Counted from the whole stretch's first letter, positions 1,738 through 48,200 are shown. The stretch is 63,130 nucleotides of DNA, filler included, from Reclinomonas americana ATCC 50394 (GCA_048213135.1; 5 parts of 3 records of this genome joined end to end with filler, not necessarily neighbours in it); one strand, 5' to 3'. Notes: generated by a model not told the origin, from the letters alone. Numbers and translations: made by a program.

Positions 1738-4700
1738 GAGAGAGTAGTACGTTACGTACGTACGTAGTACGTACGTACGTACGTACGGTACGTACGGTAC
1801 GACGGACGGACGGACGGACGGTACGGACGGACGGNNNNNNNNNNNNNNNNNNNNNNNNNNNNNNNNNNNNNNNNNNNNNNNNNNNNNNNGAGAGAGAGAG
1901 AGAGACTGAAAGAGCGTGGCAGAAGGACGATTTGTTCCGTACAAGGAGAGTTCCCTTGTAACCGGGATAAGGGTCAAGCGGCAGGGCAAGGGTCAGAGGT
2001 CAAGGGCAATTGGTCAGAGAACCGACAGAGAGCAAAGGAGGGGTGGATGTGTGTGTTCTTTGCCGTCGACTCCACCTTCGACAAACTGGTTTTACTATTT
2101 TCGTTTGCTCTCCACTCTTCCCCCCATCCTTTATTTTCATGATCTCCTGCATCTCTACTGTGCTCTTTACCATAGACTCCTCATTTCGACAAACTGGTTT
2201 TACTATTTTCGTTCAGTCACCACTCTTCCCCCCGGTTCGCGTTCTGTTTTCCATCTGTTTCTCTTCATGGTATCCTGCACCTCTGATGTGCTCAATTTCT
2301 CGTCTTCACCATAGGCTCCTCGTTTGACAAACTGTTTAACTATTTTCGTTTGCTCTCCACTCTTCCCCCCTTTTCGCGTTCTGTTTGCATTTGTTTCTCT
2401 CCATTATCTCCTGCACTTTGCTGTGCTCAGTTTCTCGTCTCTCGTCTCTGACGTGCGCTTTTTATGTTCTCATTCTTGCAGCGATTGCGCTCGTCGTCTT
2501 CTACTGCGTCTCAGAATCAAGAATTTCTTTCTCAGCCTCATCTCTCACCACGTTTGCAGGCTGCGTGTCGAGGCCCTCGGCGTGTTCCATCAACGAGCCC
2601 TCAGCGACGACATTCAGCAGTACTTGGAGCGTCTCACAGTTGCGGCAAGTCACTCGCCTTTTGTGGTGATGCTGGCAACTGATGCTCCTTTGCAGAACGA
2701 GTTGAACATTACTCGCGACTCGCTGGCGCGTCAGTTGGAGCTGGAGATCTCGGAGCGATTCATGCGGCATGCGGATGATCTGGTGTCGGATATTGAGCGG
2801 GAGAAGTGCGAGTCGTTTGGTGATTTGGTGCGGGCCGTGAATGTCAGGATGGAAGGTAGGAGAGGGGAAGGGTGGAAGAGGGAAAGGGGGAGGGGGTAAG
2901 GGAAATGGGCAAAGGGAGAGGAGGGAGAAGATGAAGAATAAGGAAAATCGAAAGATGACCGTTTAGTGGGGGAGGATTGCAGTGGAGAAGGAAGAGAGGG
3001 GAACGGTTCGGGGAAGGGCCAGGACGCAAGAGGAGGAAGGTAATACAGAAGGAGCAGTGGAAGAATTAGAGAGAGGGGATATTACATTGAGAACTGGTGG
3101 ATGTGATAAGTTATTTGAAGGGACGCAATGTGGGGAAGGGAAAATGGGACAGTGGGGAAGGGGTATGGTTAGAGTTAGAGAGAAAGGTAAAAAAGATGTA
3201 ATTCAAGAGGACGGAAGGTAAATGGACGAAGGAGCTAGTGTCAAGGGAGACATGGAACGGAAGATCGGGAGTGTTGCAGGGGAGAATGAGGGGTGAGAAG
3301 TCAGAGGGGAAAGAGAGAGGCTGGAGAACTAGCATGGGAGGAAGGTAGAAGGAAACGTGAGTTGGACACGGTTTTGTTGGAGAGGGGGCTGTTAATCGAA
3401 GAGGGCACAAGGTGGACAGGTGCAGAGACAGAAAATTGTGAAGGGCAGAGGTGTGTTGAGTGAGGCAGTGAGAGGAAGAGCGTGCTGTGTGCACTGGGGA
3501 TGCGGCATGAATAAGTCAGTTTTCTTTCTGATTTGAGGATCTATCTCAGTTCATTCTCATTGCACCTCTGCTTGTTATGACGGTGATTGCCTCGTCTCTC
3601 ATTCCTGCTTGTCGCTTCAGAATTCTACAACCAACACGGCGAGCAACGTGCCTTCCAGCTGCGAAGCGCTCACATCTTCTCGCGCGTGCTGCGTGTGATG
3701 CTGAGTGGAGCTGAGCGTCTGGAAGATGCGCGGACGCGAGCGGAGCAGGTGTGGCAATGTTGTTGCTCTTTGTCTTGTGCTCTCCTTTTGTATTGACGAT
3801 TGTGCAGGCGATGGAGCGCGAGCTGTCGGATGCGCAGTTGACTGTTGAAGACATGCAGCGTCGACTGGAGGTGTCGCAGGTTGGAAAGGGGGCGGAAGGG
3901 GAGAGGGCAGAAGGGGAAGGGTGGGAGGGAGAGCAATAGAGAGAGTGAAAGAGAGGGAGTAAGAGAACGAGATTGAGAAGAGGAAGCACCAAGTGTTCCT
4001 GTCATTCGAAGTGGTCGACGACAGCGCGCTCGACTGTACTGAGTCAATAGACTGCTGAAGATAGGAAGTGGGGGATTGAGGCAAAGAGAGCTTGTGTTTC
4101 TCGAGCGGACGATCAAGAGTTGAGATTGCACACACACCGATTATGTACAATGGGTGGGGAAACTGTGCTGGAGAGATAGTGAGAGATCGATTCCGCAAGC
4201 ACGCACTCGCTTACGCATACCAACGACAAGAAGAGTGTATGTATGTGCAAGAGAGAAAGTGGCAGATGTGCATCGACACGTTCAGGAGGGAAAAGAAAAG
4301 CGAGAAATATCACAAGGCTTGACACGTGCCGGCGCCCGCGCACACTGACAAGTAGACAGAGAGAGATTTAGCAGAAGTGAATGAGTGCCAGTATTTCCAC
4401 TCAGACACACGGGGAGAGGTCAAGGAGAGAGAGAGAGAGAGAGAGGTAGAGAAAGTTGCAGATATGCATTGAGTTCAGGATGGGAAAGAAAAGCGAGAGA
4501 AACGTGAGGGAGAGCACGCCGCACTTGACACGCACAGGCACCCACGCACACAAAAGAGAGGTGAAAAAGAGATGGAGGAAGAGAGAGTGCATCAGTGTCC
4601 GCGATTGAGAGAGTGAGCAAATGAGTGACAGCACGCACTCGTACAGGGTCATTTGTTTAGAGACGATGCTGTCAAACACCATGAGCTTGGAGCCCACTGT

Positions 4701-7222
4701 GATTCTCACTCGCCCTCCTCCCCCCACAGCAAGAAATCGAGGCACTGCGTCAGGAGGCGCAGGACTTTGCCGACACGGAAGGCAGCATGCAGCGGGAGTT
4801 GCAGCGCTTGCGCTCACAGGCGTCGGTTTGTTAGCGTCCTTCTTGGTAATTGCAGCTCCTCCCACTCATCTTTTTGCTCCACAGGCTGGAGACAGTGAAC
4901 TGGGTGTCCTGCAAGCCGACTATCATCGCCTGGAGCAGCAGTACCAGGAGTTGGAGGTTTGCTGCTCTGTGTTGAGATGGGTGTTGCGAGTCGTGGCTCA
5001 TGTTTGTGACATTTGCAGCGTGCCTCGCGTGCGCAAGTCGACCAGAGCCGGACCAGCGAGTCGCGATACGAGGATCGCTTGCATCGTGTGCAGCGTGACG
5101 CATCGGAGAAGGTGTGTGGTCATCTGCAATTAAGGTTAATCTCTCGCCGCCTCACCTCCGCCTCAGATCGACCAGTTGACGCAGCAGATTGCGATGTACG
5201 AGGAGGAGATTGCGGTCTGTCGCGCGCACAGGCGTTGATGTCCCGCTGCAAGAATTTCACTCATTCTTTGGTGATAGGGTCTTCGCAACTCTTGTGCCGA
5301 GCTGGAGTCGCAGCTGTTGGAGCAGGGTGGTCGCGGGTCGGCTGCTGCCGGTCGCGGTGGGGATACGGACTATTGGCGCGAGAGGTACGAGCGGTTGTTG
5401 GAGGATTACAACATTCTGGCGGATGAGAGTACGGTGAGTGTGGAGAGTGGGAGAGGATGTTGGGAGAGTGACTGATGTGGGAGACGTGTGTGTGTGCAGG
5501 CTGCGGATCAGGTGGTGGCGCAGGTGGCGTTGGAGGTGAGGTGGGGGAAGAGGGGAAGGGAGGAGCGAGGGGAAAGAGAGAGAGATGAGGGGGAATGGTG
5601 AGGAGAGAAGACGACATGGTAACAGAAGGGAAAGAGAGGCGAAGATGAGAGAGGAGAGTGGGAAACTACGAAATATGAAATATGTGCAATGGGTGAGGAT
5701 AGGAGAGAGGAAGGAGTGAGCGGGTGACAAGGGAGAGGAGTGTTGACGGATGAGACATGGAAGGGAGGGGAAGGGTGAATGTGTATGCTTGTGAAGAGAG
5801 ACGAAGATGAGAGAGGAGAGGGGGGAAGAGCTACGAAATATGTGCAAATGGGTGAGGATAGGAGAGAGGAAGGAGTGAGCGGGTGACAAGGGAGAGGAGT
5901 GTGAAAAGGGAGAATGAGAGACAAGTTGAGAGGAAAGAACCTTGATATTTATCGTCATCCACTTCACAACCACCCGCTTGTGCTCCTATTCTCATCTCTC
6001 GTCGTATCCTCGCGCAGCGCCGACAAGAGGACAGCGAAGTTGCGCCTGATTCCCTCTTTGCAACCCTTCTCGTCCTCCTTTCTCATTCTCCTCTCCCACC
6101 GCAGATGCAGGAGGTCGACGACTCGACGCCGCGCAAGAGCGCTGCTGCCGCACGTGGCACGCCGTCGAGCTCACGCCGGCGTGGACGGCAGAGCGAGGTC
6201 GACATGGACGGCATCAATCAGTTCATTGCGTCGACTGTGAAGGTTCGGCTCCACGTGCGACTCTTCTTCTGCAGTTGTCTGTCACACTGAGCGTGTGTAT
6301 TGTGAGCAGAAGGAGAAGGGCACGCCGAAGCGTGCTCCCGAGGACGAGGGAGCCGGTCAGCCGGCGTCGAAACGTCGTGTGGTGCGTGGCAGTTGCACTC
6401 GCGGTTCTCTGTTGCAGTGGCTCACTCGCCGTTTCGCAGTCGATTGGTGAACCGTTGAAAGATTCGGGTAGCCTGTCGGTGCCGTTCCTGAAGAACTTCC
6501 TGTCAGAGAACTTCCCCACCGAGTATGCCAGTGCGGGGTGAGTGTCATTGGTGTGCGCGAGGGTGAGCGGGATGCTGAAAAAAATGGGTGTGCAGTGGCA
6601 GCAAGATGACCAAGCCCAAGTTGGTGGAGTTGTACGATCGGTTGAATGGTGGTGGTGGTGACGATGAGGATGGTGGGGAGGATGACGAGGTGATGGAGCG
6701 GGCGTCGGTGAGTGGGGAGGAGAAGGGCAAAGGGGGGAGGGGGTAGAGGGAGAGGAAGGGAAAGGGAGAGGGGGAGAGGGAAAGGGAGAGAGAGAGGGAG
6801 AGAGAAGGAAGTGGCAGCACGCACCAGTTGGCACTGCTTGTCCTCCTCACTTATCGTACAGTTGGCTGTGATGATTTGTGCGACAGTAAAGGTGGTAGGG
6901 GTTGCATTTGTGTGTGGCGAGTAAGCGCGAAGTAGATTGGACTGAGTCGTTGCGCGCTGAAGTGGAAGGGAGGAAGTGAGAAGCAGTGTGGCAAACTTTC
7001 AGTGTTGGTGATCTGTGTGAGAGTGAGGTTTGTGTTTGGGAGAGAATGGCCTATTTTTTCGGTGTGCGCAGTGGATTGTATTCGTCTCTCCATGTGCGTG
7101 ACAAGTGTCAGATTGACCCTTGACCCCTTGACCCTTGGATCTGCGTTCGCTTGCAGTGACTGATGGACAGTGCGGCGACAAGTGCAGTAGACTGAGAGTG
7201 CGAATGTGTGTGTGAGGTTGTG

Positions 7223-7287
<65 letters not shown>

Positions 7288-8535
7288 GAGGAGGAGGAGG
7301 ANNNNNNNNNNNNNNNNNNNNNNNNNNNNNNNNNNNNNNNNNNNNNNNNNNNNNNNNNNNNNNNNNNNNNNNNNNNNNNNNNNNNNNNNNNNNNNNNNNN
7401 NNNNNNNNNNNNNNNNNNNNNNNNNNNNNNNNNNNNNNNNNNNNNNNNNNNNNNNNNNNNNNNNNNNNNNNNNNNNNNNNNNNNNNNNNNNNNNNNNNNN
7501 NNNNNNNNNNNNNNNNNNNNNNNNNNNNNNNNNNNNNNNNNNNNNNNNNNNNNNNNNNNNNNNNNNNNNNNNNNNNNNNNNNNNNNNNNNNNNNNNNNNN
7601 NNNNNNNNNNNNNNNNNNNNNNNNNNNNNNNNNNNNNNNNNNNNNNNNNNNNNNNNNNNNNNNNNNNNNNNNNNNNNNNNNNNNNNNNNNNNNNNNNNNN
7701 NNNNNNNNNNNNNNNNNNNNNNNNNNNNNNNNNNNNNNNNNNNNNNNNNNNNNNNNNNNNNNNNNNNNNNNNNNNNNNNNNNNNNNNNNNNNNNNNNNNN
7801 NNNNNNNNNNNNNNNNNNNNNNNNNNNNNNNNNNNNNNNNNNNNNNNNNNNNNNNNNNNNNNNNNNNNNNNNNNNNNNNNNNNNNNNNNNNNNNNNNNNN
7901 NNNNNNNNNNNNNNNNNNNNNNNNNNNNNNNNNNNNNNNNNNNNNNNNNNNNNNNNNNNNNNNNNNNNNNNNNNNNNNNNNNNNNNNNNNNNNNNNNNNN
8001 NNNNNNNNNNNNNNNNNNNNNNNNNNNNNNNNNNNNNNNNNNNNNNNNNNNNNNNNNNNNNNNNNNNNNNNNNNNNNNNNNNNNNNNNGCCGCGAAGGTG
8101 AAAGAAGGTAGGAGATGTGTGCGTTAGGGAGAGAGAGAGAGAGAGACTCTGTACATCAGAGCGATGCCTGTACTGTATGCTAGACTCTCTCACACATGTG
8201 TGCGATGCATTACAGGTCTCGCAACGCAGCGCCTCGTCCTCAGCCGCCGCCCCGTCCGGGAGCGGTCTGCCCGACCCCGAGTCGCTGACGGCACCGTTCA
8301 TGAAGAACCACTTGTCGGAGCAGTTGCGTGTGCAATCTTCTTGATTGTGCCTGATCTGGTTGTTGATCGGCGGCGTGCATTTCAATGCAGCTTCCCGGTC
8401 GAGTTCGAGAAGGCCAACGGCCGTGCCATGAAGAAGCAGGCATTGGTCACGCTGGTGAGTAGCTGTGTGTCTGCGTGTGTCCTTGTCGGTCGCTGACTGG
8501 ATGTGCCGTTGCAGTGGAAGCGACTGTACAAGTGA
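1041..8535 (+). CDS. Guanylate-binding protein (GBP)-family GTPase, 5' partial, multi-exon, with coiled coil, bipartite NLS and two C-terminal HeH/LEM-like domains
   Basis: Spliced exons give ERNEIRRSITTLFPRRNCF...LRPEF...VTGETYLRLAQCFVEAVNSGGLPSI, matching the end of the GBP GTPase domain and start of the helical domain. Then coiled coil, KRAPEDEGAGQPASKRRV, and repeats SLSVPFLKNFLSENFP...KPKLVELYDRL and DPESLTAPFMKNHLSEHFP...KKQALVTLWKRL. Stop TGA at 8533-8535. Confidence 0.8.
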
Positions 8536-8625
8536 GAGGCGCAGTAGCACAGATAGGTGATGAGAGGCGTGGAGGCTGAGTCACGAATGAAAGAGGGCAT
8601 CGACCACAGCAATCACCATAAACAA

Positions 8626-9439: not shown

Positions 9440-9606
9440 ATCGATGACCGGCAAAAACAGTACTNNNNNNNNNNNNNNNNNNNNNNNNNNNNNNNNNNNN
9501 NNNNNNNNNNNNNNNNNNNNNNNNNNNNNNNNNNNNNNNNNNNNNNNNNNNNNNNNNNNNNNNNNNNNNNCCTCTCACACACCCCATCTGACACTCTCTC
9601 GCACAG

Positions 9607-12132
9607 GCATCCAACGCATCCGCAAGGTCTCTCACACACAAGCAGCACGCAATCTTCCTCTCTCTTTCTCTCTCACACGTGTCTGCATGCAGGACTACAA
9701 GAGCGGCTCAGGCACAGATCGCTCCATCACTCTACACCTCATCCTCCGTCACGTCTACAACACCATCATCCGTGTTGTTCCACGATCCATTGCGTTGCGC
9801 TCTTTCTGCACAACAATCAGTTGTCCATCAGTCTCACTCCCGTACAGTCCGAACGTGATCACGCTGACCGGCTTCCTCTGTGTGGCACTCTTCGTGGCCA
9901 CTGGTGTCTATTATGCCCCGCAGCTGCTTGGCGAGTGCCCGCGATGGGTCTACCTGCTCTCCGCAGTGTGCATGCTGGCCTATCAGACGTGCGACAACCT
10001 CGACGGGAAGCAGGCGGTGCGCACCAAGTCGTCGTCGGCACTGGGCGAGCTGTTTGATCACGGAGTTGATGCGTTGGCGGTGCCGGTGAGCCCCTTGCGT
10101 TGAGAGAGAAAGGCTTGCCAGCTGACGCAGCTTCTCTCTCGTTTGTTAGTTGGGCACTGTCGGCGTCTGTGTGTCGTTGTCGTTGGGGATTTCGTGGGGC
10201 GCGGTGCTGTACTTGTGGACGGCCACGCTGCCGTTTGGGTGTGCCACGTGGGAGGAGTTGCGACGCGCGCGGTGAAGAGTGGGTGCGGTGTTTCTCTCTC
10301 TCACGCGCTGAGATGGTGCAGATATCATCGCGGTTTCCTGCACTTTCCCGTCATCAATGGCGCGATTGAGGGCTTGATCCTGATTGCCGGCTTGCATCTC
10401 ATCTCGTTCTTCAATGGTGCGCACGGGGGAATGGGCAGAGAGGGAGAGAGGGAGGGAGAGAGGGGGGGAGGGAGAGAGGGAAGGAGGGAGGGAGGGAGGG
10501 AGAGAGAGGAGGGAGGAGAGACATGCTCTTCGTCTTCCTCCTCTCCTTCCCTTCTTCTGCTTCTTGTTGTTGGTGGTGGAGTTTTTCTTCTTTTCCTTCT
10601 TTTATTCTTCTCATCCTCCTCATCCTTCTTCTCTCCTTTCTTTTCTTCTCTTTCTGATTTTTCTTGAGGAGAAGAAGGAAGTGGAGGAAGAAGAAGGAAG
10701 TGGGTGAGGGAGGAGAAGAAGAAAAGGAACAACAACAACAGCAATAACTACAACAATAAGAACGAGAAGGAGATGAGGATGGAGATGGAGAAGCACAGCA
10801 AGAATGTAAGAAATAAACTGTGACGGCGAGAAGAGAAGTTCTTCCACCTCTCCTCCTCTTCTTCTTCCTCCTCCTCCCCGTCTTTTTTCTCATTTATTGT
10901 TCAGTTCATCGTCAACTCTCCCGTTTGCTTCCTCCTCCTCCTCCTCGTCCTCTCCCTCCCTTCTTCTTCTTCTTTTCTTCTCCTCATGATTTCTTATCTT
11001 CTTGCCGTCGCTGTTCATACCTTCCGTTCTTGCTGTGCTTCTCCTTCTCAATCCTCATCTCCTTCGCGTTCTTATTGTTGTAGTTGTTGCTGTTGTTATT
11101 GTTCTTTCCTTCTTCTTATCCTCCTCCCCAGTCTTCTTCTTCTTCGTCTTCTTCCTCTTGCTCTTCTCTTTGCCTCCTCCTCCTGCCTCTTCTTTTCCTC
11201 ATTTATTGTTCTGTTCATTGTCTTCTTCTTCTTCTTCTTCTTCCTCCTCCTCCTCCCCCTCCTCCGCCTCGTCCCTCACCGTTCCTGCTTCCCCTCTCTC
11301 TTCCCTTACCACTCCTTCCCCTTAATTGCAGGTTCCGGCATCTGGCACCAGGACCTCGCCACCATCTTCCCCAACTCCTCCCTGACCAAGTTGCCGCTGC
11401 TGCACGGCATTCCACTGTACCAATACGCACTGTCCATTGGCCTCGCGCAGGTCACTCTCACGTCGGTGCAAAAGTTGAGTCAATCGCTCCTCTCCCTCTC
11501 TTCTGCATCATGCCCTCACTTACCACGCCCCGCGCAGCCTGATCCGAGTGGCCAACAACGAGTCACGCCACGTGAGTCGTGAAGGCACCTTCCGCTCCCT
11601 GCTGCCACTGGCCGTGTGGGCCGTATGCATGTTCGCGTGGCGGGCCTTCGCCCCCGACTTGCCGGCCATGGAGCGCCTGCCCGTGCTCTACTTTGCCGCC
11701 GTCGGCTGCTCCTTTGCCAAGCTGTCGGTGAGCCAAAAGACATAGACAGCAAGGCGATGTTGCGCACTCAACCACACCTGCTTACACAGACCAACCTCAC
11801 CGTGTGCCACGTCTCGTACGACCCGTATCCGCTGCTGCACTGGAACCTCCTTCCGGTCATGGTGCCGGCCGTGCACGCCTGCATCGCCTTCTTCACCGGG
11901 TACAACTCGCACCACACCGCCTTCCTATTCTTCACCCCCTCGTAAACACTCACTTGCGCCTTTGCACAGTCACGTTTTCATTGACGAAACCACGCTCCTG
12001 TACCTCTCGGCACTAACGTCGACCGCCCTCTACGTCGGCTACATTGTGCGCGTCGTGCGTGAGATCTCCACACGTGCCGGCATTCCCGTGTTTACATTAC
12101 CGCCACTGGAGGTCGTCGCCAAGGCACAGTAA
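9607..12132 (+). CDS. Choline/ethanolamine phosphotransferase (CDP-alcohol phosphatidyltransferase), start probably in the gap
   Basis: APNVITL and the CDP-alcohol motif DNLDGKQAVRTKSSSALGELFDHGVD; ATWEEYHRGFLHFPVINGAIEG; several hydrophobic segments; stop TAA at 12130-12132. Confidence 0.92.
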
Positions 12133-12205
12133 AGCAAGCAAGCGACGTTGAGCGCAACAAGAATGTACAGGACTTTTCCACAGTTGTCTCTTTGTGTTGT
12201 GCGCA

Positions 12206-15200
12206 ATGAGTGCCACCAGTCTGCTGGTTGCTCTCTCGCACCGGCTGCCCAGTGCCAAACGAGCAATCAAGCAGCTGAGAAGAGAGCTGCAGACGCAGAG
12301 TGCACTGCTCGCTGATATCTGGTGTGTGCACACTCAATCAAGTGTCTCTCTCTTTCGCTCACATAGTGCGCAGTGTGGATGTCTGCTCACGACACACCAG
12401 CAGTCAAGCCGCATACGAGGAGATCGCCAGCAGGTGCTGCAGGAAAAAGACACACTTAGTTGTCATCTTTTTCCCGCTCTCACACTCAGACACACAGATT
12501 CGGCGTTCTTCGCTCTCGCGACGCTCTTCACAGCATTCTGCACGTGTGGCGACACGCGTCTATGAACGACTTGTCGCCTCTGGTGGGACACGCACGCAGA
12601 GCGATGAATCACTCACAGCATGGGAAACGCAAGACATCAACAACTGGAGTGAGCGATCAGCAGCGATCATTGATGCATCGTGTCAAGGGCGTATGTGAGC
12701 GACTGTTCACGGCCAATGCATGCACAGTGGACGTGAAGAGCGTGCGTTCTCTCTCTCACTTCACCCACTGCTCGCTGGCTGCTTACAATGGTAAGTGCAG
12801 TATCTGTTGCATGCGGCATTGGACGATGTGCAAGAGGCGGCAGCTGAGGGGCGACGCAAACCGTGGAAGCACGTGTATTCGCCGTGGGATAAGGCGCTGC
12901 ATGTGGCGTTCAGTCGCATGTATGCGCATGTGGTGGCGCATGAGTATTGTCGATTGCGGGAGCAGCGTGTGGCGTGGTTGGTGTGGAGGAGGCGGTTTCG
13001 CGTGGAGTGGGAGAAGCGGCGCAAGGTGTTGGAGGTCAGGCAGTTGATTCGTGCGGCGTTGCACTGGAAGGCGGCGTTGTTGAGGTGCGGGGATCGTCGT
13101 GCCGTTGGTGGACGTAGGTTTTTGCTCATGGCGGTGTCGGGTGACAGGCGGTTGTTGTTGGGTTGGAAGAGTGTGGTTCGGCGGCGGCATCGTGTGACGG
13201 ACTTGAGTCAGACGATGCAGCTGGCCAGTCGCACACCGCAGTGCGAGTCCAAGTTTCGTCAGCGGTGGATGGTGCAGGCGGCGTTTCGGCGGTGGAAGGA
13301 GGCGTACAGGCTGTTGCGTCTGAAGAAGGGGGAAGGGGGAGGGAGAGAGGGAGAGAGAGAGAGGAGGGAGGGACGGAGAAGAGAGAGAGAGGAGGAAGGT
13401 TTGAGGCACAAGAAAGAGTGAGCAACAGAGAGAGGAGAGAGAGAGAGAGCGAGCGAGCGTTTCTCTGGCAGTGAGGGGAATGAGTGGAGAGGGAGTTTTG
13501 CGATCTTGTTGATGACACAACGAAGGGTTTGGAGGAATGTGACTGCAGAGAAAAAAGTCGTACAGCAGAGAGTTATTCTTGGGTTTACTTCCGTCACCTC
13601 ACTCGCTCGTGATCACCAGAGAGCGAGTGCGATACCAGCGCGTGGTGTATGTGGCGCACCGCTGTCTGGTGGCCTGGCGACATTTGGTGCGCCAGGCGGA
13701 CACGCTGCATCGGCGGCAGGAGCGCTTTCAGATTGCACTCGAGGTTTGAGTATCTTTCTGCTGCATTTTTTGTGGGTGCTGCAAGTCTGACTGGCAAAAT
13801 GCAGGAGAGGCGTCTGCGCAGGTGTTGGAGCCACTGGTCCATGCTCTTCCGCGTGCACTCCGTGCGACGGAACGGCGTGGTTCGTCGTTTCTTTCGTCGG
13901 TGGCGGCTGGAGACGTGGCTCGCCACCAATTTGCGGCTGGCTGGCGAGTACTATCGGCGCTCGTTGTGTGCGCGTGCACTGTGTGGGTTGTTGGAGACGG
14001 CACGAATTCGACGCTTTCGCCGGCAAAGTGATGAACGGCGTGTGCGGAGTGTGTGGCAAAGGTGCGGAAGGCGAGGCAGGGTACACGAGGTCTTGGTTAT
14101 TCGTTCACGGACAGTCGTGGCGCAGATGGTGTGACCGAAAACAACGTCGTGTGGATGTCCGCGAGCTGGATGATTCCCGGGTGGCGTCCGTGGAGGGACC
14201 GCGCCGACTGCGTATGCTGCGCGCGGCATTCCACCGCTGGTGAGTCTCCTGTTTCGGCGAGCAAGATCATCGCTGCTCCGCAACTGTGTGTTGGTACTTG
14301 TTGTCAAGTGCTGTGCTGTTGTCACTTGGTTTTCAAGTGCTGTGTTGTTGGATTTGAGGGCGTCGTGCTGACTGTCGTGCGTGCAGGGCCACGCGGTACA
14401 CGGCACGGCGAGAGCATCGCGAGAAGAGTGTGATGGCCCGGTACTACTTCGAGGCCAAGCATCGGCACGAGATCCTCCTTCGACACTTTCGCGGCTGGTG
14501 TCTGTTTTCGGCGCGGCATCGGCAGCAACGGGCCAATCGTACGCGGGCCGCGGGATTCCGACGACAGCACCAGTTGGCCGACACGTTTTACCTTTGGCGG
14601 CGACGTCTCCAGGCACAGGAGGCCACGCGGGTGAGTGGCATGGTGGTGTGTGGGTTGCAGGCGATTGCTAATTATTATGGACCTCTTGCGTAGATTCATG
14701 CGCAGATTGTCAGCACCTTTGAAGTGATTCGGGCGCATCGGTTCCTCTTGCGTCACTTTGTGGTGTGGCGCGACTGGACGCGTGCGCAGCTGGCGCAGGA
14801 GCTGGCGATGGCGGATACCGTGTGGCACCTCAGCACGCAACGCTCGTATTTCCGTCGCTGGCGAGAGCAGCATGCTCGGCGCCAGGTGACCGCTGCCATG
14901 AGCGCTCTCGCCACACGGTTCCACGCACGCAAGTTGCAGCGTGCGGTGTTTGAGGAGTGGAGGGTTCGCCATTTGTCACTGTTTCTTTTGAATTCCCGTC
15001 TGTTAGCTGACGTTTCACTCAGCGCACGAGCCGCATACTCGCCGAATACAAGGGCGACGCGGATGTTTTCGCCCGTCAGCTTCTGCTGCGGCGGTACGTA
15101 CGCGAGTGGCGATGGCAGTATCAAATCAGGATTGCGTGCCGTGTGATGGCTGCCGCCCGAGTTGCGTGAGAGGATTTTTCCCCTCTTGACGAAGTTTCTC

Positions 15201-15479
15201 GATGTCATCTGAATCGCCCAGCGCAGGATCAACGGTGGTTCCGCCGGTGTTTCGGGGCGTGGGTGAGTTTTGCATCGAAGCGGGTGTTTCGAGGATATCA
15301 GCGACGCAAGGCGGAAAAGTTTGCCAGACTCCGCCTGTGCAAACGTGTGCTCTTGGCGGTGAGTGCACAGGCGGTGTGGCGTCTGTGGTTGTCGTTGTGG
15401 GTGGCTGATGGTTCCACGACAGTGGTTTCGACAAGCGCGGGTGGAGAGGACGATTCGCGAGGGAGAGGAGAGGCGGTGA
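12206..15479 (+). CDS. Sfi1-like centrin-binding repeat protein, multi-exon
   Basis: Recurrent A-x-(F/Y/H)...L...F-x-x-W units, e.g. AAGFRRQHQLADTFYLWRRR, LATRFHARKLQRAVFEEW, HLSTQRSYFRRWREQH; Arg/Trp rich. Some exon boundaries are approximate. Confidence 0.75.
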
Positions 15480-17058: not shown

Positions 17059-17101
17059 NNNNNNNNNNNNNNNNNNNNNNNNNNNNNNNNNNNNNNNNNN
17101 N

Positions 17102-17113
17102 TTAATTAATTAA
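17102..17113. other. Artificial join linker TTAATTAATTAA within N-run (also 32706-32717, 60014-60025, 61713-61724)
   Basis: Identical 12-mer with stops in all six frames, centred in N-padding at four sites. Confidence 0.95.
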
Positions 17114-17831: not shown

Positions 17832-20066
17832 ATGACCACCATGCACCGACTATCACTTCTCCTGCTGTCTCTCGTCGTGCTCTTCGCTGTATCTGTGCAC
17901 GCTGGCGCCGGCACGTGCGGTGCTCGCTTGCGCGGTTCCCGCATCGAGCCGCAACAGCGTCCTCATCGTCCCATGATGCCGCTGGCATTCAACACCACAG
18001 TGCAGTACACTGGCGAGCTGGGCGGCATGGTGACCACCAGAGTCTTTTACAATAAGGCACTGAGGTCCACTTGGGTTGCACGAAATAGAGAATCGTCTAA
18101 TTTGTGTTGCGTGGCGCTTACTTGGGCGCTTGCGCGCAGTCGGTACCGCTTGGACTCGTATGGCATCCCCACGCCGCCGATGCTGGGCTTGTCGCGCCTG
18201 CCGGAGTCTGTCACGCAGCGATTGTTGAAGGCGAACAGTGGCGACGAGGACGGCCCGTACCCGCCGCTCGGTCTGTACACTTTCTTCTTCCACTACGACA
18301 AGGTGAGTCTCTTTGCTGAAACGGTGGCGAGTGTATGGGAAGCTCACACTGCTTCTGAACAGGGCCAGATGCTGTCGATCTGGCCGGTGCGTTGTGCGTG
18401 TTTGTCTCTCTCTTGGTCGGCTGTTGCTCACGGCGGTGGTGATGCAGGGTAACGGAAAGGCCACGTGCCTCATTACCGATGTTGCGTGCTGGTATCAAGG
18501 GTGGAAGCCATGTTCATTCGGTGACTCAATTCCATGTCACGCGCAGATCAACCCGGCCACGCCACCCCCGCTCGCGCTCTCAAAGTGCGTGATTTTCGAC
18601 GAGGAGAACTTGCCCTTTGATTCCTCCCTCATCTCTCTCGCCCACAGCAACGCCTACTTTGTCGGCAACATGGACATCAACAACCGCACGTGCTCTCACT
18701 GGCGCGACGAGTATCTCTTCCTCACCACCGACATGTTCTTCGACAATGAGACGAATAATCCGGCAATGTGCGTCACTTACTCAGGGGGAAAGGGGGAGAG
18801 GGGTGAGAGGGAGAGAGTAAGGAGAGGGCGAGGGGAGGATCACGTTCGTTTGTGTCGCGGTCATTATCGGCAATGTGCGTCACAGTCAGGAGAAGGAGGA
18901 AAGGGGGAGTGAGAGACTGAGTGAGCAAGTAATGAGTGCAATAAGGAGAGGGTGAGGGGAACATCACGTTCGTTTGTGTCGCGGTCATTATATCTTGTTT
19001 TATTTTGTGTGTGAGTGATAGTGAGTGTGTGAGCGGGAGAGAAAGGTAGATGCCTGACCTGCCACGGTCCAGCTTTGGGCTCTCTTATGTCGCGCGATAT
19101 TACTTGTTGTGTCATACTCCAAGTTTCTTTTCCGATTGTTGCTTCCGGTAGAACTGTTGCATGCTCGTTGACATCAAGATCACCTTTGATTGTGTCGCGG
19201 TCATTATCGGCAAGCAATCTTGTTTTATTTTGTGTGTGAGCGGGAGAGAAAGGTAGATGCCTGTCTTGTACTGGCGGTTTCTGCCACCGTCCAGCTTTGT
19301 GCTCTCCATCGCATGATGTTGCTTGTTGTGTCATACTCCATGCTTCTTTTCCTATTGTTGCTTCCAGTAGAACTGTTGCATGCTCGTTGACATCAAGATC
19401 ACCTTTGTTTGTGTCGCGGTTATTATCGGCATGCTGTCTAGTTTATTTTGTGTGTGAGTGACAGTGAGTGTGTGAGCGCACCGTCCAGCTTTGGGCTCTG
19501 TATGTCATCGCATGATGTTACTTGTTGTGTCATACTCCATGCTTTTTGCTTCCGGTAGACCTGTTGCATGCTCGTAGACATCAGTTTTCCTCTTTATATT
19601 TCTGTCTGCTGCTTCGCCGTCCCGTTCGTGTCTCATTATTTCTCGCACGCCGAAGTGTGGTTTGTGCAGTGTCTCTCCTGCTCTCTCTCTCTCTCTCTCG
19701 TGTCTGTCTGCCATTTGCCTGTCTGCCAGTCTCGTTAACTTTCCCCGTGTAACTCGATAGTCAGGTGTCAGTGACTCTTTTTCTCTCTTTCGCCTTCTTC
19801 GTCTTGTGGATGTGTTTATTCTCTCTCTCTACCTGTCTGTCTCGCTCTCCAATGTCAGCCGCGTGTGACACTCACTTCTCAACTCTGTGCAGGTTGACTT
19901 TCGGCACCGACGTCTACACCTTTATCGATTTCATGGCCGGCCCGCAAGACATTACGTTCTTTGATGTTGCGTAACTGCGGTGCTCTGCTCTGTCTCCTGC
20001 CTTCTCACCGCCTGCTGTTGTTGCGCGCTGCAGCCGCCGGGCGACATTCAATGTAAGCACGAGTAA
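17832..20066 (+). CDS. Secreted/lysosomal ependymin-related (EPDR-like) protein
   Basis: Signal peptide; spliced protein has PLAF...FYNKALR-RYRLD...C...YFVGNMDINNRTCSHW...NPAM-LTFGTDVYTFIDFMAGPQDITFFDPPGDIQC, the ependymin-like layout ending in F-x-x-P-x(n)-C. Confidence 0.6.
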
Positions 20067-26051: not shown

Positions 26052-26083
<32 letters not shown>

Positions 26084-39330: not shown

Positions 39331-39565
39331 TCGATCATCTCAGTTTCTGGCGCCCAAGCAGGATCCGGATATTGAGAATCACATAGTTATACAGCTCTTT
39401 GAATTAGCAAAGTTGCTTTGGCGTTGCCTTTCAAGGTCAACAAGTCAGTGAGTTGTCCTCCAAATGCGTCCCACTGTTGATTCGGACCAGCACTCCGAGA
39501 TCGGAATCTCTGCATCCTCTCTCTTTCTCTCTCCCTTTTCCTCTCCCTCTCACTTCTCTCTTACA

Positions 39566-39686
39566 ATGCCTCTTGCTTCCTGGATCGATTACGCGCCCGA
39601 ATCATGCGATTTCCCGCTGGAGAACGTGCCATTTGGTGTCTTCCGCTCACCGCGAACGGGAGAGCCGCATTGCGCAACAGCCATTG

Positions 39687-39727
<41 letters not shown>

Positions 39728-42700
39728 AGAGAGAGAGAGAAGAAGAGAAGGAAGGGGAGAGAGCTGAGAGAAGAGAGACAAGTTCAATGAGAGAATGCGA
39801 GTTTGTGAGAGAATGCAGTGAGCAAGTGTGTGAGAGTGTAAGAGCATGTAGTCACTCACTCTCTCACAGCACACGCTCTCACATTCTCTTCTGTGTATGT
39901 GTGCAAGAGCTCTCTCTCTCTCCTCTGTAAGAGAGAGAGAGAGCAAGTGCGCTCTCTCGTATGCACACTCATTTGCAACAGTGTGTGTGTGTGTGTTTGT
40001 GTGTGAGTATGTGCATGCAGTCACTCACTGTCTCACACTTGCACGCTTTCTCTTGTGTGCAGAGCGAGAGAGAATGTGAGACTGTGAGACTGTGAGAGAG
40101 AACAAACAAAGAAAGAGCATTCAGTCACTTGTTTCACGCTCTCTGTCACTTTCTCTTGTGTGCAAGTGTGTGCATGAGTGGGCATGAGTGATAGAGAGAA
40201 TACAGAGATTCTGTGTCTGTGTGTGCATGCAACAGTGTGACACTCTCTCCCACACACTCACTGTCTTTCTCTCCTTGTGTCTGTGGCAAAGTGTGACATG
40301 TCCACCCTCACTCTCTCTTTTTTCCGATGTTTTCTTTGCCCTTATTTTCATTCTTGTTTTTTCTTTTGCAGGCAACTTTGTGATTGATTTGCGTGTGCTT
40401 GCCGAGGCCGATTTGATTCCGAATCCCGACGGATGTTTCTTCAAGGTTTGTGTGTGTTTTTCTTGCAAGTCATCGCTCTCTCTTTGATCGTTGAGAGTGC
40501 ACTCCTTTGATGTTCCCCTTGCTCTTCCCTCTTGTCGTCGCCTCCCTCCGCCATTTTTCTCTCTCGCTCTTCGCCCTTATCTCTTGCCCTTGTCTCTCGC
40601 CCTTGTCTCTCACTCTTTGTCATTTCTCTTTGTCTTCCCCTTGTCTTCCCTTGTCTCTCACTCTTGTCTCTCGCCCATCCTTTTGCGCTTGTCTCTCGCT
40701 CTTGTCTCTCGCCCTTGTCTCTCGCCCTTGTCTCTCGCGCTTGTCCCTCGCGCTTGTCCCTCGCGCTTGTCTCTCGCGCTTGTCTCTCGCGCTTGTCTCT
40801 CGCCGTTGTCTCTCGCCCTTGTCTTGCACCCTTGTCGTGCACCCTTGTCTCTCGTCCTTGTCTCTCACTCTTTGTCTCTCGCCCTTGTCTCTCGCCCTTG
40901 TCTCTCGCCCTTGTCTCTCGCCCTTGTCTCTCGCCCTTGTCTCTCGCCCTTGTCTTCGCGCCTGTCTCGTCTCTCACTCTTGTCTCTCGCTCTTGTCTAT
41001 TGCCCTTCTCTCGCACCCTTATCTCTCTCTCGTCTCTCGACCATGTCTCCCTTTTCTTGTCGTCCACTCTTGCTTTCCCCCATTGCTTTCCCCCATTGCT
41101 TTNNNNNNNNNNNNNNNNNNNNNNNNNNNNNNNNNNNNNNNNNNNNNNNNNNNNNNNNNNNNNNNNNNNNNNNNNNNNNNNNNNNNNNNNNNNNNNNNNN
41201 NNNNNNNNNNNNNNNNNNNNNNNNNNNNNNNNNNNNNNNNNNNNNNNNNNNNNNNNNNNNNNNNNNNNNNNNNNNNNNNNNNNNNNNNNNNNNNNNNNNN
41301 NNNNNNNNNNNNNNNNNNNNNNNNNNNNNNNNNNNNNNNNNNNNNNNNNNNNNNNNNNNNNNNNNNNNNNNNNNNNNNNNNNNNNNNNNNNNNNNNNNNN
41401 NNNNNNNNNNNNNNNNNNNNNNNNNNNNNNNNNNNNNNNNNNNNNNNNNNNNNNNNNNNNNNNNNNNNNNNNNNNNNNNNNNNNNNNNNNNNNNNNNNNN
41501 NNNNNNNNNNNNNNNNNNNNNNNNNNNNNNNNNNNNNNNNNNNNNNNNNNNNNNNNNNNNNNNNNNNNNNNNNNNNNNNNNNNNNNNNNNNNNNNNNNNN
41601 NNNNNNNNNNNNNNNNNNNNNNNNNNNNNNNNNNNNNNNNNNNNNNNNNNNNNNNNNNNNNNNNNNNNNNNNNNNNNNNNNNNNNNNNNNNNNNNNNNNN
41701 NNNNNNNNNNNNNNNNNNNNNNNNNNNNNNNNNNNNNNNNNNNNNNNNNNNNNNNNNNNNNNNNNNNNNNNNNNNNNNNNNNNNNNNNNNNNNNNNNNNN
41801 NNNNNNNNNNNNNNNNNNNNNNNNNNNNNNNNNNNNNNNNNNNNNNNNNNNNNNNNNNNNNNNNNNNNNNNNNNNNNNNNNNNNNNNNNNNNNNNNNNNN
41901 NNNNNNNNNNNNNNNNNNNNNNNNNNNNNNNNNNNNNNNNNNNNNNNNNNNNNNNNNNNNNNCCCCCATTGCTCTCCCCCATTGCTCTCCCCCATTGCTC
42001 TCCCCCATTGCTCTCCCCCATTGCTCTCCCCCATTGCTCTCCCCCATTGCTCTTCCCCTCTCCCCCTTCTGCCTTCCCCCTTCCCCCTTCTCATTCCACC
42101 CTTCTCACCCCTTCTCCCTTCCCTCATCTCCCCCCTCCTCACCGCCCCTTCTCCACTTAGCCCACGTTGAACCACTTCGCCTCTCTCGGCTACGACGCCT
42201 GGAGCTCCGTGCGCCACCGCCTGCAGCGCCTCTTCTCCGCCGACGAGCCGGCACTGCGCGACGAGGGCGGCTTGCAGTCGACAGTGAGTGTCACCTACTT
42301 CTCACCACGCTCCTCCTTTGCGCTCATGCCTTTTCTCGTCATCAGTGCATGTACGAGATGGGCTCGGTGGAGATGCTGCTGCCGGTGGAGATTGGCGACT
42401 ACACCGATTTCTACGCCAGCAAGGAGCACGCCACCAACGTGGGCACGATGTTCCGAGGCGCCGCCAACGCCCTCATGCCCAACTGGTTGGTTACGGATGC
42501 ACGCTGATGATCACCAGCCTTTGTCCTCACTCTCCTTTCTGGCAGGACCTCTCTCCCGGTCGGCTACCACGGCCGCTCCAGCTCGGTGGTCGTGTCGGGC
42601 ACCGGCCTGCACCGCCCGCACGGCCAGCTGAAGCCGGTGGACGAGGAGCCGACGCAATTTGGCCCGAGTCGCCTGCTTGATTTTGAGTTGGAAATGGCCA

Positions 42701-43982: not shown

Positions 43983-44042
43983 ATCACACACACAACCGAG
44001 TGATGAGTGAAGGGCGATTGAGTGAGTGCTGGAAGTCGTTGC

Positions 44043-45185
44043 ATGCATTTATTATTTGTCATGCTCCTCTTGGTGTGCTGTTTACTGGGCGTGCCACAGC
44101 AACAAACGAAAAGCAAGGAATTTTCGTTTGATCTCCACTCGTCTTCTACTCAATACCAGAATCAAGTTCCTACTCAGAACCGACGATTTCGTGCAGATTA
44201 CATTGCCAGTTATGCCGACCACGGTGCCACATTCGTGCTCGATGGCCAGACGCCGCCGGTCGCTAGTCCTGGAGAGTGGAGGAGCACTTCGCTGACCAAG
44301 GCGTCGACGGCGGTGAGTGATTTCGAGGAGAGAAGACAGAGATGTGATCACCACAGTAGAGTACCGACCATGCGGCTTACTCTCCGAAGAGAAGCGAGTC
44401 GATAAGGAGAGGACACAGACTCTCCTCTTTTCCATTCTCCTTTTCTCACTTTTCTTATGGGGCAGTCGACATTGGTGCCCCACGTCTTCCCGTTCACTGG
44501 TCTGCCGTCCGTGGCTGCGTCGCTGCTTGGCGTGGCCACGATTTCCAATTCCGAGCTGCGCATGACGTTGCGCGACGACTGCCGCGTGCAGTTCATGACT
44601 GCGCGATATCTGGTGGCCGGCTCGCCGACGGACAATCGCTCTGGCCTAGCGGTGCTCTCAGGCGAAACGTCGCATGCGGCCGGGCAGCACGTGATTGTTT
44701 CACTGATGGTCAACGACAAGGCGCAGTTCGGGTTGCTGCAGAGCGATTTCAAGTACGCGGTGCTTTTGCGTGGGTGGAAGACGTCGAGTGTTGCGGCTGC
44801 AGGTGCTGTCTCGCCGTCGGTGTTGCATCAGAGTGGTATGCCGTCGCGCGGGTCGGCGGCGGTCGGGTCGTTTGGGCAGCTGGATATTGTGGTGGCGAGT
44901 GGAGCGGGAGTGGAGGAGACGTGTGGCGGTGGGGGTGCCGGCGGGGCAGTGAGGAAGGGGACATATAGCAGTGCTTTCATAAACGTCGATAACACTGCCC
45001 TGTCTCGCTCGTATTATGCATTCTCTGCGTCCTCCCAGCACTTGATGTCCGCACGGACGCAGGCAAGTGTCGCGAACACCGTCGCACCGACATCGCCGCC
45101 AGGTCGCGCAGCTAGTTCGCATACTGCTCGGCGATGGGACGACGAGCGCTTCGATGATCCACGCACCTGCGATCAACAAAAGAGT
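44043..45185 (+). CDS. Hypothetical secreted protein, 3' end uncertain
   Basis: Signal-like MHLLFVMLLLVCCLLG; in-phase intron (GTGAGT near 44313 to CAG near 44465) joins a long coding-like frame; no family recognised. Confidence 0.4.
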
Positions 45186-45297
45186 GAGTCTGTGGGAACA
45201 TGGCGAAGTCACCATCAGCCGCACACGTACCACAGACACAGGAGCAGGCAGCATACGACCCACACATGCATCTACTTGCATATCATCACCCTCCTGC

Positions 45298-48200
45298 TCA
45301 CTCTGATGGTCCAGCAGGTCCTGCTCCACCCACTGCCGCCTCGCTCAAGCGCCTCAGCTCGTCGAGCACATACGCTGCCGACACGCGTGTTGCTTGTGGC
45401 CTCTACATCACACACGCGCGATGAGCAGCCACCTCTCCGAACAACACGATCTACTTCATCAGAACGCAACCCAGCACTGCCGAATCAGATTGCGAACGTC
45501 CTCCGGCACGGCAGCCCGCGCACTCTCATCGTCAAGATCGGCGGGTGGAACGCCGGCTTTCATGAGATCTCCGATTTGCATCAACGCCACTCCATTGTAT
45601 GGCTCCTGACGAGTGGCGATGAACCAGAGCAGTGAACCAAGTCCATACACATCCGCCCTCTCATCATACTGCGAGTGGTGAACAAAGCATGTGTGAACGC
45701 CGCTCTCATCGTGCAAAGCGAGAGAAGAAAATGTCATCTCCGCACCTCCTGATCCAGCATGGCCTCGGGCGCAGCATACGCTGCCGTGCCGTGATTCGAC
45801 TGCATCTTGCCAAGAGTGCCGTGAATCCTGGCCTCACCAAAGTCGCACACCTTTGCCACGAGTCGGTCCTCGCTGATGAGGATGTCTGAGGGCATGCAGT
45901 GGGAACAGAGTCAGCGATGAAAGGAAGTATGGTGATTGATCTGGAAGATGTTCCACTGCCCTCTCTCTCACATCCACTCTCTTTCATCAACGTGCCATAA
46001 CACCACTCGACGAGAGTGCGCACAACCGCTGATGCCACTTGCACGAGCACATTGACCTCACACGCCTGGTTGTCTCTCCCTCCCTCTCACCTTCTCTTGC
46101 GTCAGCATCTCGTAAACCTCTTCTCTTGTAGTCTCGCTCTCTCCCATCAGCCACTCCAAACGAAACTCTGTGGCCTGAGATCACGATGCACCACTCGACG
46201 AGAGTGCGCACCACCGCTGATGCCACTTGCACGAGCAGACTGTCCTTACTCGCCTAGTTGTCTCTCCCTCGTTCTCACAATAACTCACTTTGCATCAACA
46301 TCTCATAATCCTCGTCTCTTGTCGTCTCATATTCTCGCATAACCCTCTCCAAAACGAAACACTGTGGCCTGAGATCACGATGCACCACTCGTCGCGAGTG
46401 CATGTGCACCACCGCCGACGCCACTTTCACGAGCAGACTGTCCTTACTCGCCTAGTTGTCTCTCCCTCCCTCTCATCTTCTCTTGCATCAACATCTCATA
46501 ATCCTCTTCTCTAGCAGTCTTGCTCTCTCCCATTGCGCTCTCCAAGACGCAACTCTGCGGCTTGAGATCACGATGCACCACTCGACGCGAGTGCATGTGC
46601 ACCACTGCCGACGCCACTTGCACGAGCAGACTGAGCAGATGTGGAGTCGTCATATGCTCGTCCTTCACCAAGTCATGCAGCGTCTCGGCAATGCCCTCCT
46701 CTTCATCCTCACGACCGACATATTCAAGAACAAGACCGAGACCACTCGGGTCGTCGTTGCACACGGCCATCAGTTTCACAATGTGTGGGTGACTGCGTGC
46801 AGGCACATGAGCGACAACGTCAGCATGCAAGTGCAAGGAGCACGAAAGCACGCAACTCGAGTTGCATCAGCAGAGAGTGCTCGTTCTCGAAGCACGCATG
46901 AACACTTTTCCAGTCCGTCGATTGTGCATCTCGAGCTTGCCTCCTGACCAAGTATCGCTTGTACGCCACGGTCTGCGACATACCGCCAAGGCGGAGAGCG
47001 GCATGGAAAACAGCATTTTGACCTGCAGTGGCAAACGGAGGAGATGAGTTTGTGCTCATTCACACAGAGATGCAGGCACGCGGAGGTGATTACACCAATA
47101 GCAAGTTGTCTTGAAGGCGTCAAGTCCGAGAACGACACAACAGGTGCGCGAATGGCGAATCGCGCTGCTCTCTCCGTCACCAGCTCAGCCGTCACATTGA
47201 TGCGACACACATCTGTGCTCAGAGAATGAGTAGGAGAGAATGAAGACACCAAGTGGCGATAAGCTGTCGCAACTCTCGTATGCTTGGAACAGCAGACGGA
47301 TACTCTCGTGCTGTCCGCCGGGGAACAGCGTATGGAGTGAGTCGCGAACCAGCCGCATGACGCTCACGTACTCTGCGTCTTCGAGTGCAGAGAGACGGGC
47401 CAGGTGAGACACACGATGGCGCACATCTCGCAAGTTCTCTACGGCTCGAATCTGCAAAGCAGGCTGGCCTTGAGAACACTCGTCAGTAATGATGGCACAA
47501 GCAGAGAGCGTACCTTGGCAGGGTCAGTGAGTAGTCGCACAGCCACACGGTCTTCGTTTGTAACAGGATCGAGGCGGACGAGGCTCTCCAGCAGATCCTC
47601 ATCACGGCAAGCGACGACAGGAACGAATGTTGTGTACAGCAGCAGCGTGCTCAGCAGCGACACATCCATGCCCGATGTCACTCCACTCTGCTTGAACTCT
47701 CGAATTGTCTCGTAGTTGGAGGGGAATAATTCGACGGAGCGCATACGAATGTTGCCGCGCTTGTCCAGAGACATTCGGCAGTATCTGTGAGGCAGAATGA
47801 GCGCATGAGACACAACACATTCAAGACTGTCCCTCCTCAGCACCTCGATGATGGAGCTGGAAGACAAAGTTGCTCAATGTCGAATTCGGCATGGAAGAAG
47901 CCAGCGATGAGTTGTTGCAGGAGAGACCCAAGAGCCAGGGGAATAATCTCATGCACGACTTCGGTAAGCATCAAGATGGGACGGCGGTCACTGTGCAACC
48001 AAGAGTGAGGTGCCTCACGGGCGAGAGCAAAACTGGGTGAATGAGTCATGATTTACCTGAGAAAGTCCATGTTGAAGAGAGCGCTCAGTTGGCCTTCCAT
48101 GTTGCGCACCCTTTGCCGTTCAGAGGTGAGATTGGTCTGCAGCTCCACGACTTGTTGCTGGCTCTGAGCTTGAGCTTGCTGCAGTTCATCGACTCGATGT

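Follow-up and report, generated by a model that had tools for sequence, protein, structure and literature searches.

An abundant second 5' splice-site form, GTTG(C/A)G, in U2-type introns of Reclinomonas americana nuclear DNA, probably read by U1 one base out of register

The DNA analysed here is a 63 kb stretch of draft nuclear eukaryotic DNA from Reclinomonas americana ATCC 50394 (hereafter the window), in which 18 runs of N add up to 5413 positions and GC content is ~39-57% in 5-kb steps, and our subject is the group of its introns whose 5' splice sites read GTTGMG, M being C or A. Pfam searches of stop-to-stop open reading frames (ORFs) place on the plus strand a GBP-like gene (~0.7-3 kb), a CDP-alcohol phosphotransferase gene (9.6-12.1 kb), SDHA (23.6-31.2 kb), a gene for a TPR protein (37.1-39.0 kb) and a fumarylacetoacetase gene, FAH (39.5-43.3 kb). 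The minus strand carries a gene for an fn3 protein (~16.4-17.1 kb), a fatty-acid-hydroxylase or methylsterol-oxidase-like gene (~20.9-21.7 kb; below, the oxidase gene), a protein kinase gene (45.4-47.4 kb) and an ankyrin/kinase gene in three tandem paralogues (48-59.5 kb). Introns with a GTTGMG donor are called class B, the other anchored or predicted introns are said to have ordinary donors, and a slash marks the splice junction. The original prediction listed 18 class B donors, 17 of them following a non-G exon base, and both counts hold: all 18 are present where it had placed them and on the same strands, 16 reading GTTGCG and two (11474 and 23754) GTTGAG, and the last exon base (position -1) is A in 13, T in three, C in one and G in one, the G solely at 45470.

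Nine of these 18 junctions can be fixed to the base by colinear alignment or by an invariant kinase motif, namely two in SDHA, three in the phosphotransferase gene, three in the oxidase gene and one in the kinase gene. The earlier claim that conserved residues determine the junctions proved right for HRDLKPQ/N (46553), ATG/GYG (26457) and HHE/FTAP (21452). The spliced SDHA model, with six introns and 621 amino acids, aligns from end to end with P0001, the assembled protein used as SDHA reference, at 78% identity and with 2 gap positions, none of them near a junction; the best named source among the SDHA matches is Cochliopodium minus. One class B intron of this gene (caa/GTTGAGT, 23754..25423, plus strand, 1670 nt including an assembly gap) joins GLRAAt/GLAEAGY, which is identical to P0001, and an alternative donor at 23745 would remove 3 residues. 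The other (gga/GTTGCGT, 26457..27289, plus strand, 833 nt) leaves residues 215 and 216 of P0001 contiguous, with ILATG/GYGRAYF free of gaps. For comparison, an ordinary SDHA donor (agg/GTGCGT, 25739..26172, plus strand) yields FGKg/GQAYR, gap-free to the same protein.

The phosphotransferase model has seven introns, runs for 412 residues to the stop and aligns over its full length to several homologues, its best named relatives being Mastigamoeba-type, Andalucia and Naegleria sequences at 41-45% identity (Naegleria at 65% over 29% of the query). All three of its class B introns lie on the plus strand. At the first (tgc/GTTGCGC, 9794..9847, 54 nt) homologues read RSIA/PNVITL, and read-through adds an 18-residue insert absent from every one of them. 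Removal of the second (gga/GTTGCGA, 10257..10321, 65 nt) gives TWEE/YH..VNG..EG, colinear with the homologues, where a competing in-frame donor at 10272 would add 5 residues. The third (aaa/GTTGAGT, 11474..11537, 64 nt) leaves a junction that is gap-free in P0122-P0125, its split codon AA/C supplying the conserved N of an N-[VL]-[IL]-R motif.

In the oxidase gene, on the minus strand, the introns at 21090..21148 (gtt/GTTGCGT, 59 nt) and 21388..21452 (tga/GTTGCGT, 65 nt) give HHCGYQf/PW and HKIHHe/FTAP, both gap-free to P0146, P0147, P0151 and P0155. The one at 21477..21535 (tga/GTTGCGT, 59 nt) gives FYe/PIHKIHH, which is gap-free to homologues and in which the Y-x-x-[IVF]-H-K spacing is preserved; splicing from a donor 5 nt further downstream would disrupt the frame. 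Protein kinases share the invariant motifs HRDLKPxN and DFG, and the kinase gene is interrupted by a class B intron (aga/GTTGCGT, 45886..46553, minus strand, 668 nt) at HRDLKPQ-a/ac-N-ILISEDRLVAKVCDFG. It is the sole GT-AG placement that gives HRDLKPQ-(A/AC)N-ILISEDRLVAKVCDFG, and both flanking ORFs have Pfam kinase matches. Within this minus-strand intron we also noted a 193-nt unit (3.3 copies at 83% identity, window 46001-46633) that duplicates the HRDLKPQ exon end together with the intron start; the first copy retains GTTGCGT, and the two that lie downstream have GTTTCGT in its place and no longer contain the codons for K and P.

The oxidase gene has a homologue on a 7.5 kb metagenome contig of 65% GC (L013), where removal of six modelled introns, each 43-63 nt long, yields a protein that is complete and colinear. 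Of the six donors, five are GTGCG[CT], and the last, cggct/GTTGCGT, falls inside the HRL/FH histidine box, with a junction that is gap-free to P0155. All three GTTGCGT heptamers on the plus strand of this contig follow a T and resemble the start of an intron. Since the same donor stands at a homology-fixed junction of L013, the donor class is not peculiar to one assembly. Two side observations concern this gene family. An ordinary L013 intron (ccacg/GTGCGC, L013:3789-3831) lies one nt upstream of the class B intron at 21388-21452, within the same HHE Glu codon (G/AG as against GA/A); we found no simple mutational path for this one-base offset between the HHE/F intron and the L013 intron, and treat it as coincidence or independent gain. 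The metagenome protein P0146 carries, at residues ~63-89, a 27-residue insert absent from the other homologues, which begins with VR, ends with VVQ and resembles a read-through GTGCG...CAG intron; the window gene lacks an intron there.

It is very improbable, in our judgement, that the class is an artefact in which splicing in truth uses ordinary GTs close by, or in which GTTGMG turns up by chance among degenerate donors. Such an artefact would fit with the bare hexamer GTTGMG showing no enrichment in the window (94 occurrences against 83.8 +/- 8.2 in shuffles, with 14 of 100 shuffles reaching 94), with nine sites standing outside homology support, and with frame constraints alone leaving 75 to 1962 alternative GT-AG pairs per site. 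However, it is refuted for the nine anchored sites by junctions fixed to the base, and the L013 junction with an identical donor is likewise fixed by homology. Longer forms of the motif also speak against it, the 8-mer and 9-mer being 5-fold enriched and found almost only at donors. The heptamer GTTGMGT is weakly enriched in the window (26 against 18.3 +/- 4.1; 4 of 100 shuffles reach this count), AGTTGCGT occurs 10 times against 1.84 +/- 1.24 (reached by 0 of 100 shuffles), with eight of the 10 being listed donors, and RRGTTGCGT 9 times against 1.75 +/- 1.26 (again 0 of 100), with eight of the nine being listed donors. GAGTTGCGT (ACGCAACTC rows) is found seven times in the window, six of them at donors. 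The extended class B consensus is (G)A/GUUGCGU, with C in 16 of 18 and A in two of 18 at +5, G in all 18 at +6 and T in 14 of 18 at +7.

Comparison with the GTTGMG occurrences that are not donors separates what belongs to the donors from what belongs to the motif. A at -1 marks 13 of the 18 listed donors and 25 of the 76 other occurrences (p=0.003), and T at +7 marks 14 of 18 as against 12 of 76. G at -1 is rare in the other occurrences too (10 of 76; listed donors versus these, p=0.68). A tandem array upstream of the GBP-like gene (window 100-760, plus strand, unit ..AAGGGTTGAGGG..GAGACAACGATTGCACAC..) supplies five of these 10 cases of G before GTTGMG. The donors had been described as the usual GTGCG or GTGAG with one extra T, which is formally correct; that they are simply ordinary donors plus T is not, as the variable position holds C rather than A in 16 of 18 class B donors compared with four of 10 anchored GTGMG donors (p=0.011). 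As to the extra base itself, GT-T-GMGT is followed 45-100 nt downstream by a branch-like motif and YAG in 10 of 26 cases, against seven of 73 when A, C or G stands there (p=0.0018; A 3 of 10, C 0 of 21, G 4 of 42), and all three A-type hits come from antisense copies within the paralogue array; T alone fills the extra position of GT-N-GMGT donors.

In build the two kinds of intron are alike. With all class B intron ends as used here, GT...AG holds for 18 of 18, and YAG for 18 of 18 compared with 14 of 14 ordinary introns. The modal length is 54-68 nt in class B and 60-77 nt in ordinary introns, with a few long ones in each, and a branch-like CTSAY motif (CT[CG]A[CT], scored as a motif match only) lies within -45..-9 in 14 of 18 and 11 of 14, respectively. 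Removing the class B intron restores a frame colinear with homologues in nine of nine tested cases, the other nine having no usable homologue. Class B introns are thus best read, from these sequence features, as U2-type GT-AG spliceosomal introns of the same build as ordinary ones. U12-type introns first stood out by a rigid 5' consensus and by needing no G at -1, and class B resembles them in forming a parallel class with a rigid 5' motif that is independent of exon G-1. A divergent minor-spliceosome class is nevertheless extremely unlikely: the 5' end is GTTGMG and not [AG]TATCCTT, the U12-type branch TCCTTRAY is found in none of the 18 class B and none of the 14 ordinary introns, and the 3' halves look ordinary. 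Class B is also some two orders of magnitude commoner, accounting for about a quarter or more of introns here as against the roughly 0.36% given for mammals in a passage of PMC4856993.

A common GTTGCGT start could also arise from a mobile or recently multiplied, introner-like family, to which the short, uniform length and the differing intron positions of the oxidase gene in P0146 and L013 would be congenial. An alignment of 14 short class B members, however, shares splice signals only (GTTG(C)G and (C)AG, with a mean column identity of 40%), long members of 438-1670 nt start in the same way, and an identical start occurs in a second organism of different GC content, so that we regard such a family as highly unlikely. 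Of the long introns themselves we note that those at 25739-26172, 26457-27289, 27648-29811, 30214-30773 and from 13313 onward are purine-rich (GGGGAAGGGG-type) in their 5' parts and pyrimidine-rich (CCCCTTCCCC-type) in their 3' parts, and the two parts could pair mutually; most of the 600-900 N assembly gaps fall in such stretches. Separately, the three ankyrin/kinase paralogues (48000-59500, minus strand) have one predicted intron position in common, with the donor GTGCGS at 50606 and 54229 and GTTTGT at 57838.

The nine unanchored class B sites begin at 2639, 8323, 15161, 18481, 19966, 34079, 45470, 46856 and 47273. In the GBP-like gene the candidate intron aca/GTTGCGG...TTTGCAG (2639..2695, plus strand, 57 nt) is proposed on its signals, among them a CTGAT branch-like motif and YAG. 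Genes of unknown family on the plus strand contain the predicted introns gca/GTTGCGT (8323..8390, 68 nt, with no CTSAY branch-like motif), cga/GTTGCGT (15161..15226, 66 nt, the top-scoring frame-compatible solution) and gat/GTTGCGT (18481..18546, 66 nt), and the gene with the last of these has a further predicted intron, also gat/GTTGCGT (19966..20033, plus strand, 68 nt). At 34079..34516 (plus strand) a donor gaa/GTTGCGT is predicted, its acceptor being uncertain among several frame-compatible ones. Three more candidates belong to hand-built parts of the minus-strand kinase gene, for which a homologue search gave no match, so that they stay hand-built. These are tgg/GTTGCGT (45403..45470, 68 nt), the sole case after G, giving LIRQCW/RPQ and having a CTCAT branch-like motif and TAG; cga/GTTGCGT (46793..46856, 64 nt), the top frame-compatible solution, giving LMQLd/HPHIVKL with an alpha-C Glu-to-HP spacing that we take to fit the kinase pattern; and aga/GTTGCGA (47213..47273, 61 nt), in a non-conserved region of the N-terminal part. 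Two further predicted class B candidates, absent from the original prediction, are gaa/GTTGCGCC (gaa/GTTGCGC, 6039..6104, plus strand, 66 nt), which ends right before an ATG, and gct/GTTGCGTC (gct/GTTGCGT, 13313..13619, plus strand), at the start of a purine-rich long intron.

Gene models for a wider census came from a gene finder that gives an equal bonus to GTGMG and GTTGMG donors and is blind to the -1 base. It over-predicts antisense genes and merges genes; models antisense to Pfam-supported genes (plus strand 48224-57781; minus strand 25447-30188 and 33380-38984) were dropped, and predicted introns >100 nt and 6 paralogous duplicates were left out of the census. Two other approaches were abandoned as too noisy. 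A codon-usage dynamic-programming gene finder using no donor information misplaced known SDHA junctions, the coding signal being ~0.32 bit per codon. In three screens that looked for intron-like surroundings of every GTNNNN hexamer, neither GTGAGT nor GTGCGT was itself recovered as enriched, and we do not rely on the one screen that ranked GTTGCG and GTTGAG near the top.

Among 21 homology-anchored introns (six in SDHA, seven in the phosphotransferase gene, four in the oxidase gene, three in FAH and one in the kinase gene) nine are class B, and with the five hand-built kinase introns the count becomes 12 of 26. Addition of 36 predicted sense-strand introns <=100 nt, with paralogues counted once, brings it to 17 of 62, a proportion that is model-dependent, the donor bonus having been set equal for both classes. 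The sample is thus 26 to 62 introns from one window, and the anchored genes were chosen for having homologues. G stands at -1 in none of nine class B and 11 of 12 ordinary introns of the anchored set (p=3.4e-5), in one of 12 and 13 of 14 once the hand-built introns are included (p=2.7e-5), and in one of 17 and 37 of 45 in the wider set (p=3.8e-8); A stands there in nine of the 12. Seen from the exon side, class B provides 16 of the 24 donors after non-G in the wider set and one of the 38 after G. The dependence runs one way, as had been claimed: the ordinary FAH donor aca/GTGAGT (42284..42345, plus strand) follows A and is fixed by homology, its exon ends corresponding to the adjacent residues 107 and 108 of mouse FAH (chain 1hyo_A), and there are several predicted cases. 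At another FAH donor, 42486 (ctg/GTTGGT), the exon ends map to adjacent residues 155 and 156 of chain 9sqs_A. The proposed -1 rule therefore stands as a strong contrast with ordinary donors and as a preference for A, but non-G as such is not special against the motif background already described. Taken together, these sequence comparisons support GTTG(C/A)G as a genuine, major donor class with a one-directional dependence on the -1 base.

How such sites might be recognized can be approached by setting the two forms side by side. An ordinary site may be written G/GUG(A/C)GU, with G as the final exon base, and the second form /GUUG(C>A)GU, where the second base of the heptamer is U and not G. 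Written from -1, the two differ at one place, G-G-U-G-M-G-U versus G-U-U-G-M-G-U, and the cut precedes the first GU in both. In the second form the first GU, and hence the cut, would lie one base upstream, and therefore an exon-final G would no longer be needed. We consider it fairly probable that these are ordinary U2-type GT-AG introns with an abundant second form of 5' splice site, which U1 most likely reads in a +1-shifted register; we infer both this register and the RNA that reads the class B sites. Intron G+1 would then lie opposite C9 in place of exon G-1, U+2 would be mismatched with C8, and pairing of the UG(C)GU tail would be that of ordinary sites. The last base of the exon would be placed opposite U10, which would explain the preference for A at -1. 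Given that +5 is never G, U6 would presumably pair one base further from the cut.

Shifted or bulged pairing of U1 and U6, or a variant snRNA, had been put forward for a major intron class, and the standing of the class as a major one is upheld by the counts above. We favour the +1 shift over the bulge because -1 prefers A and G is nearly absent there (one of 12). In the bulged register U1 would pair canonically at -1, +1 and +2, one U (+2/+3) would bulge out, and the rest would pair as GUGCGU. In form the motif equals GUGCGU with one U added, and this register does occur in human cells, at 54-68 of 201,541 sites according to Table 3 of PMC4856993. It would, however, keep -1 opposite C9, where G is expected and is found in 13 of 14 ordinary donors but hardly in class B, and bases other than U should be tolerated if +3 bulged out, whereas GT-N-GMGT with A, C or G gives no intron signal above background. 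We accordingly rate the bulge as quite improbable.

Several observations weigh against the preferred reading. The nine unanchored sites rest on intron-like signals and weak gene models, and at 2639 the ORF does not demand removal of the intron, because the segment is in frame and stop-free; to these may be added the model dependence of the wider proportion. The motif alone is apparently insufficient to force splicing, since each of the three ankyrin/kinase paralogues has A/GTTGCG(T/A)G within an open frame that encodes a coiled coil (..QQGSAELREAHAKDQQQ..), as A/GTTGCGTG on the minus strand at 55618 (55612-55619) and in the paralogues at 59338 (59332-59338) and 51984 (51978-51984). When duplex energies are computed with the canonical U1 5' end, ACUUACCUG, pseudouridines not being modelled, the best duplex of class B sites averages -2.2 kcal/mol, compared with -8.2 for ordinary donors. 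All 18 ordinary donors pair with canonical U1 in the canonical register, and the minimum-energy register of class B sites is +1 in five of 18 and canonical in one of 18, all weak. Canonical U1 would be mismatched with C at the variable position, and still C is favoured there more strongly than in ordinary donors. The -2 base, which would face U1 G11 and for which C is expected, is G in 11 of 20 class B rows (10 of the 18 listed sites); at the equivalent -3 position ordinary donors have C in six of 14 and G in two of 14. The weak pairing, the preference for C and the G at -2 are easier to reconcile with a non-canonical or second U1 than with a plain shift on canonical U1.

The shift may thus be only apparent, with a dedicated second U1-type small nuclear RNA (snRNA), or a single divergent U1, complementary to (G)A/GUUGCGU and with a canonical-like U1 reading G/GUGAGU and its kin. 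Besides the three features just named, a consensus that is long and sharp and extends over two exon bases, and the occurrence of GAGTTGCGT almost only at donors, would suit such an RNA. Hypothetical U1 5' ends, which are our own constructs, also pair better with class B. One with G-C at positions 5-6 pairs with 17 of 18 class B sites in the shifted register (mean -7.5) and with 18 of 18 ordinary donors in the canonical one (mean -8.9), and a fully complementary 5' end pairs with 18 of 18 class B sites in one register at -12.0. The latter would need a second RNA, because it pairs worse with ordinary donors (-5.2). On the other side, few RNA sequences are as conserved as the U1 5' end, Rfam at gathering scores finds no snRNA gene in the window or in contigs L010, L013, L014, L015 and L017, and the exon-base preference may stem from codon use, many sites lying in GA/N codons. 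We know of no variant U1 that serves a large separate class of constitutive introns. Passages of PMC3561869 and PMC10870369 do report expressed variant U1 genes in humans, and such variants would provide the major spliceosome with a further 5' splice-site specificity. On balance a dedicated or divergent U1 is an unlikely explanation of class B, though one to be taken seriously. As a tentative proposal, to which we give slightly more but still limited credence, the lineage comprising the window genome and the L013 organism may run two 5' splice-site codes in its major spliceosome: a canonical-type U1 would read G/GUGMGU, (G)A/GUUGCGU would be read by either a further U1-type snRNA or a U1 with a remodelled 5' end, with matching slack in U6, and the last base of the exon would decide which code applies.

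Returning to the +1 shift as the preferred reading, shifted-register 5' splice sites of mammals were reportedly described by Roca and Krainer in 2009, and the bulge +2/+3 register by Roca et al. in 2012; Tan et al. 2016 (PMC4856993) treat both. In the shifted register, as passages of PMC4856993 set it out, a GT-AG intron is cut at the true GU, the intronic consensus lies one base further in and all U1 pairing moves by one; a passage of PMC9311317 summarises the same noncanonical registers. The class B sites are like the mammalian shifted sites in that +5 is never G and the G-U of the consensus tail stands at +6/+7, in their proposed +1 register and in the A before GU, which the human "Shifted +1" test oligo described in PMC4856993 has and which 13 of 18 sites have here. 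They differ in frequency, the curated noncanonical registers of human together making up 2.1% of sites in that source, whereas shifted sites would here amount to between 12 of 26 and 17 of 62 and have a sharp consensus of their own with C at +5. They differ also in that their pairing with canonical U1 is much weaker than in the human examples that PMC4856993 presents. The bulge +2/+3 register, as outlined in the same paper, shares with class B the form of an ordinary site with one U beside GU, but it predicts a retained preference for G at -1, which class B lacks. A literature search, with supplements to genome papers outside its scope, turned up no organism for which GTTGCG-type donors had been described as a class, which is no proof of absence.

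Shifted and bulged U1 pairing is known from studies of mutations at a small number of human sites, and all its forms together would cover about 2% of human donors. One such noncanonical form seems to be routine here, providing donors after non-G exons for a quarter to a half of the sampled introns and occurring in a second organism as well. Gene finders trained on GTNNGT-type donors would mis-call many introns of this lineage, as the motif-blind models did in the present analysis. If confirmed in RNA, these introns would offer a natural system for the study of how cleavage is positioned under an out-of-register U1, of the slack in U6 pairing and of the invariance of the near-universal U1 5' end.

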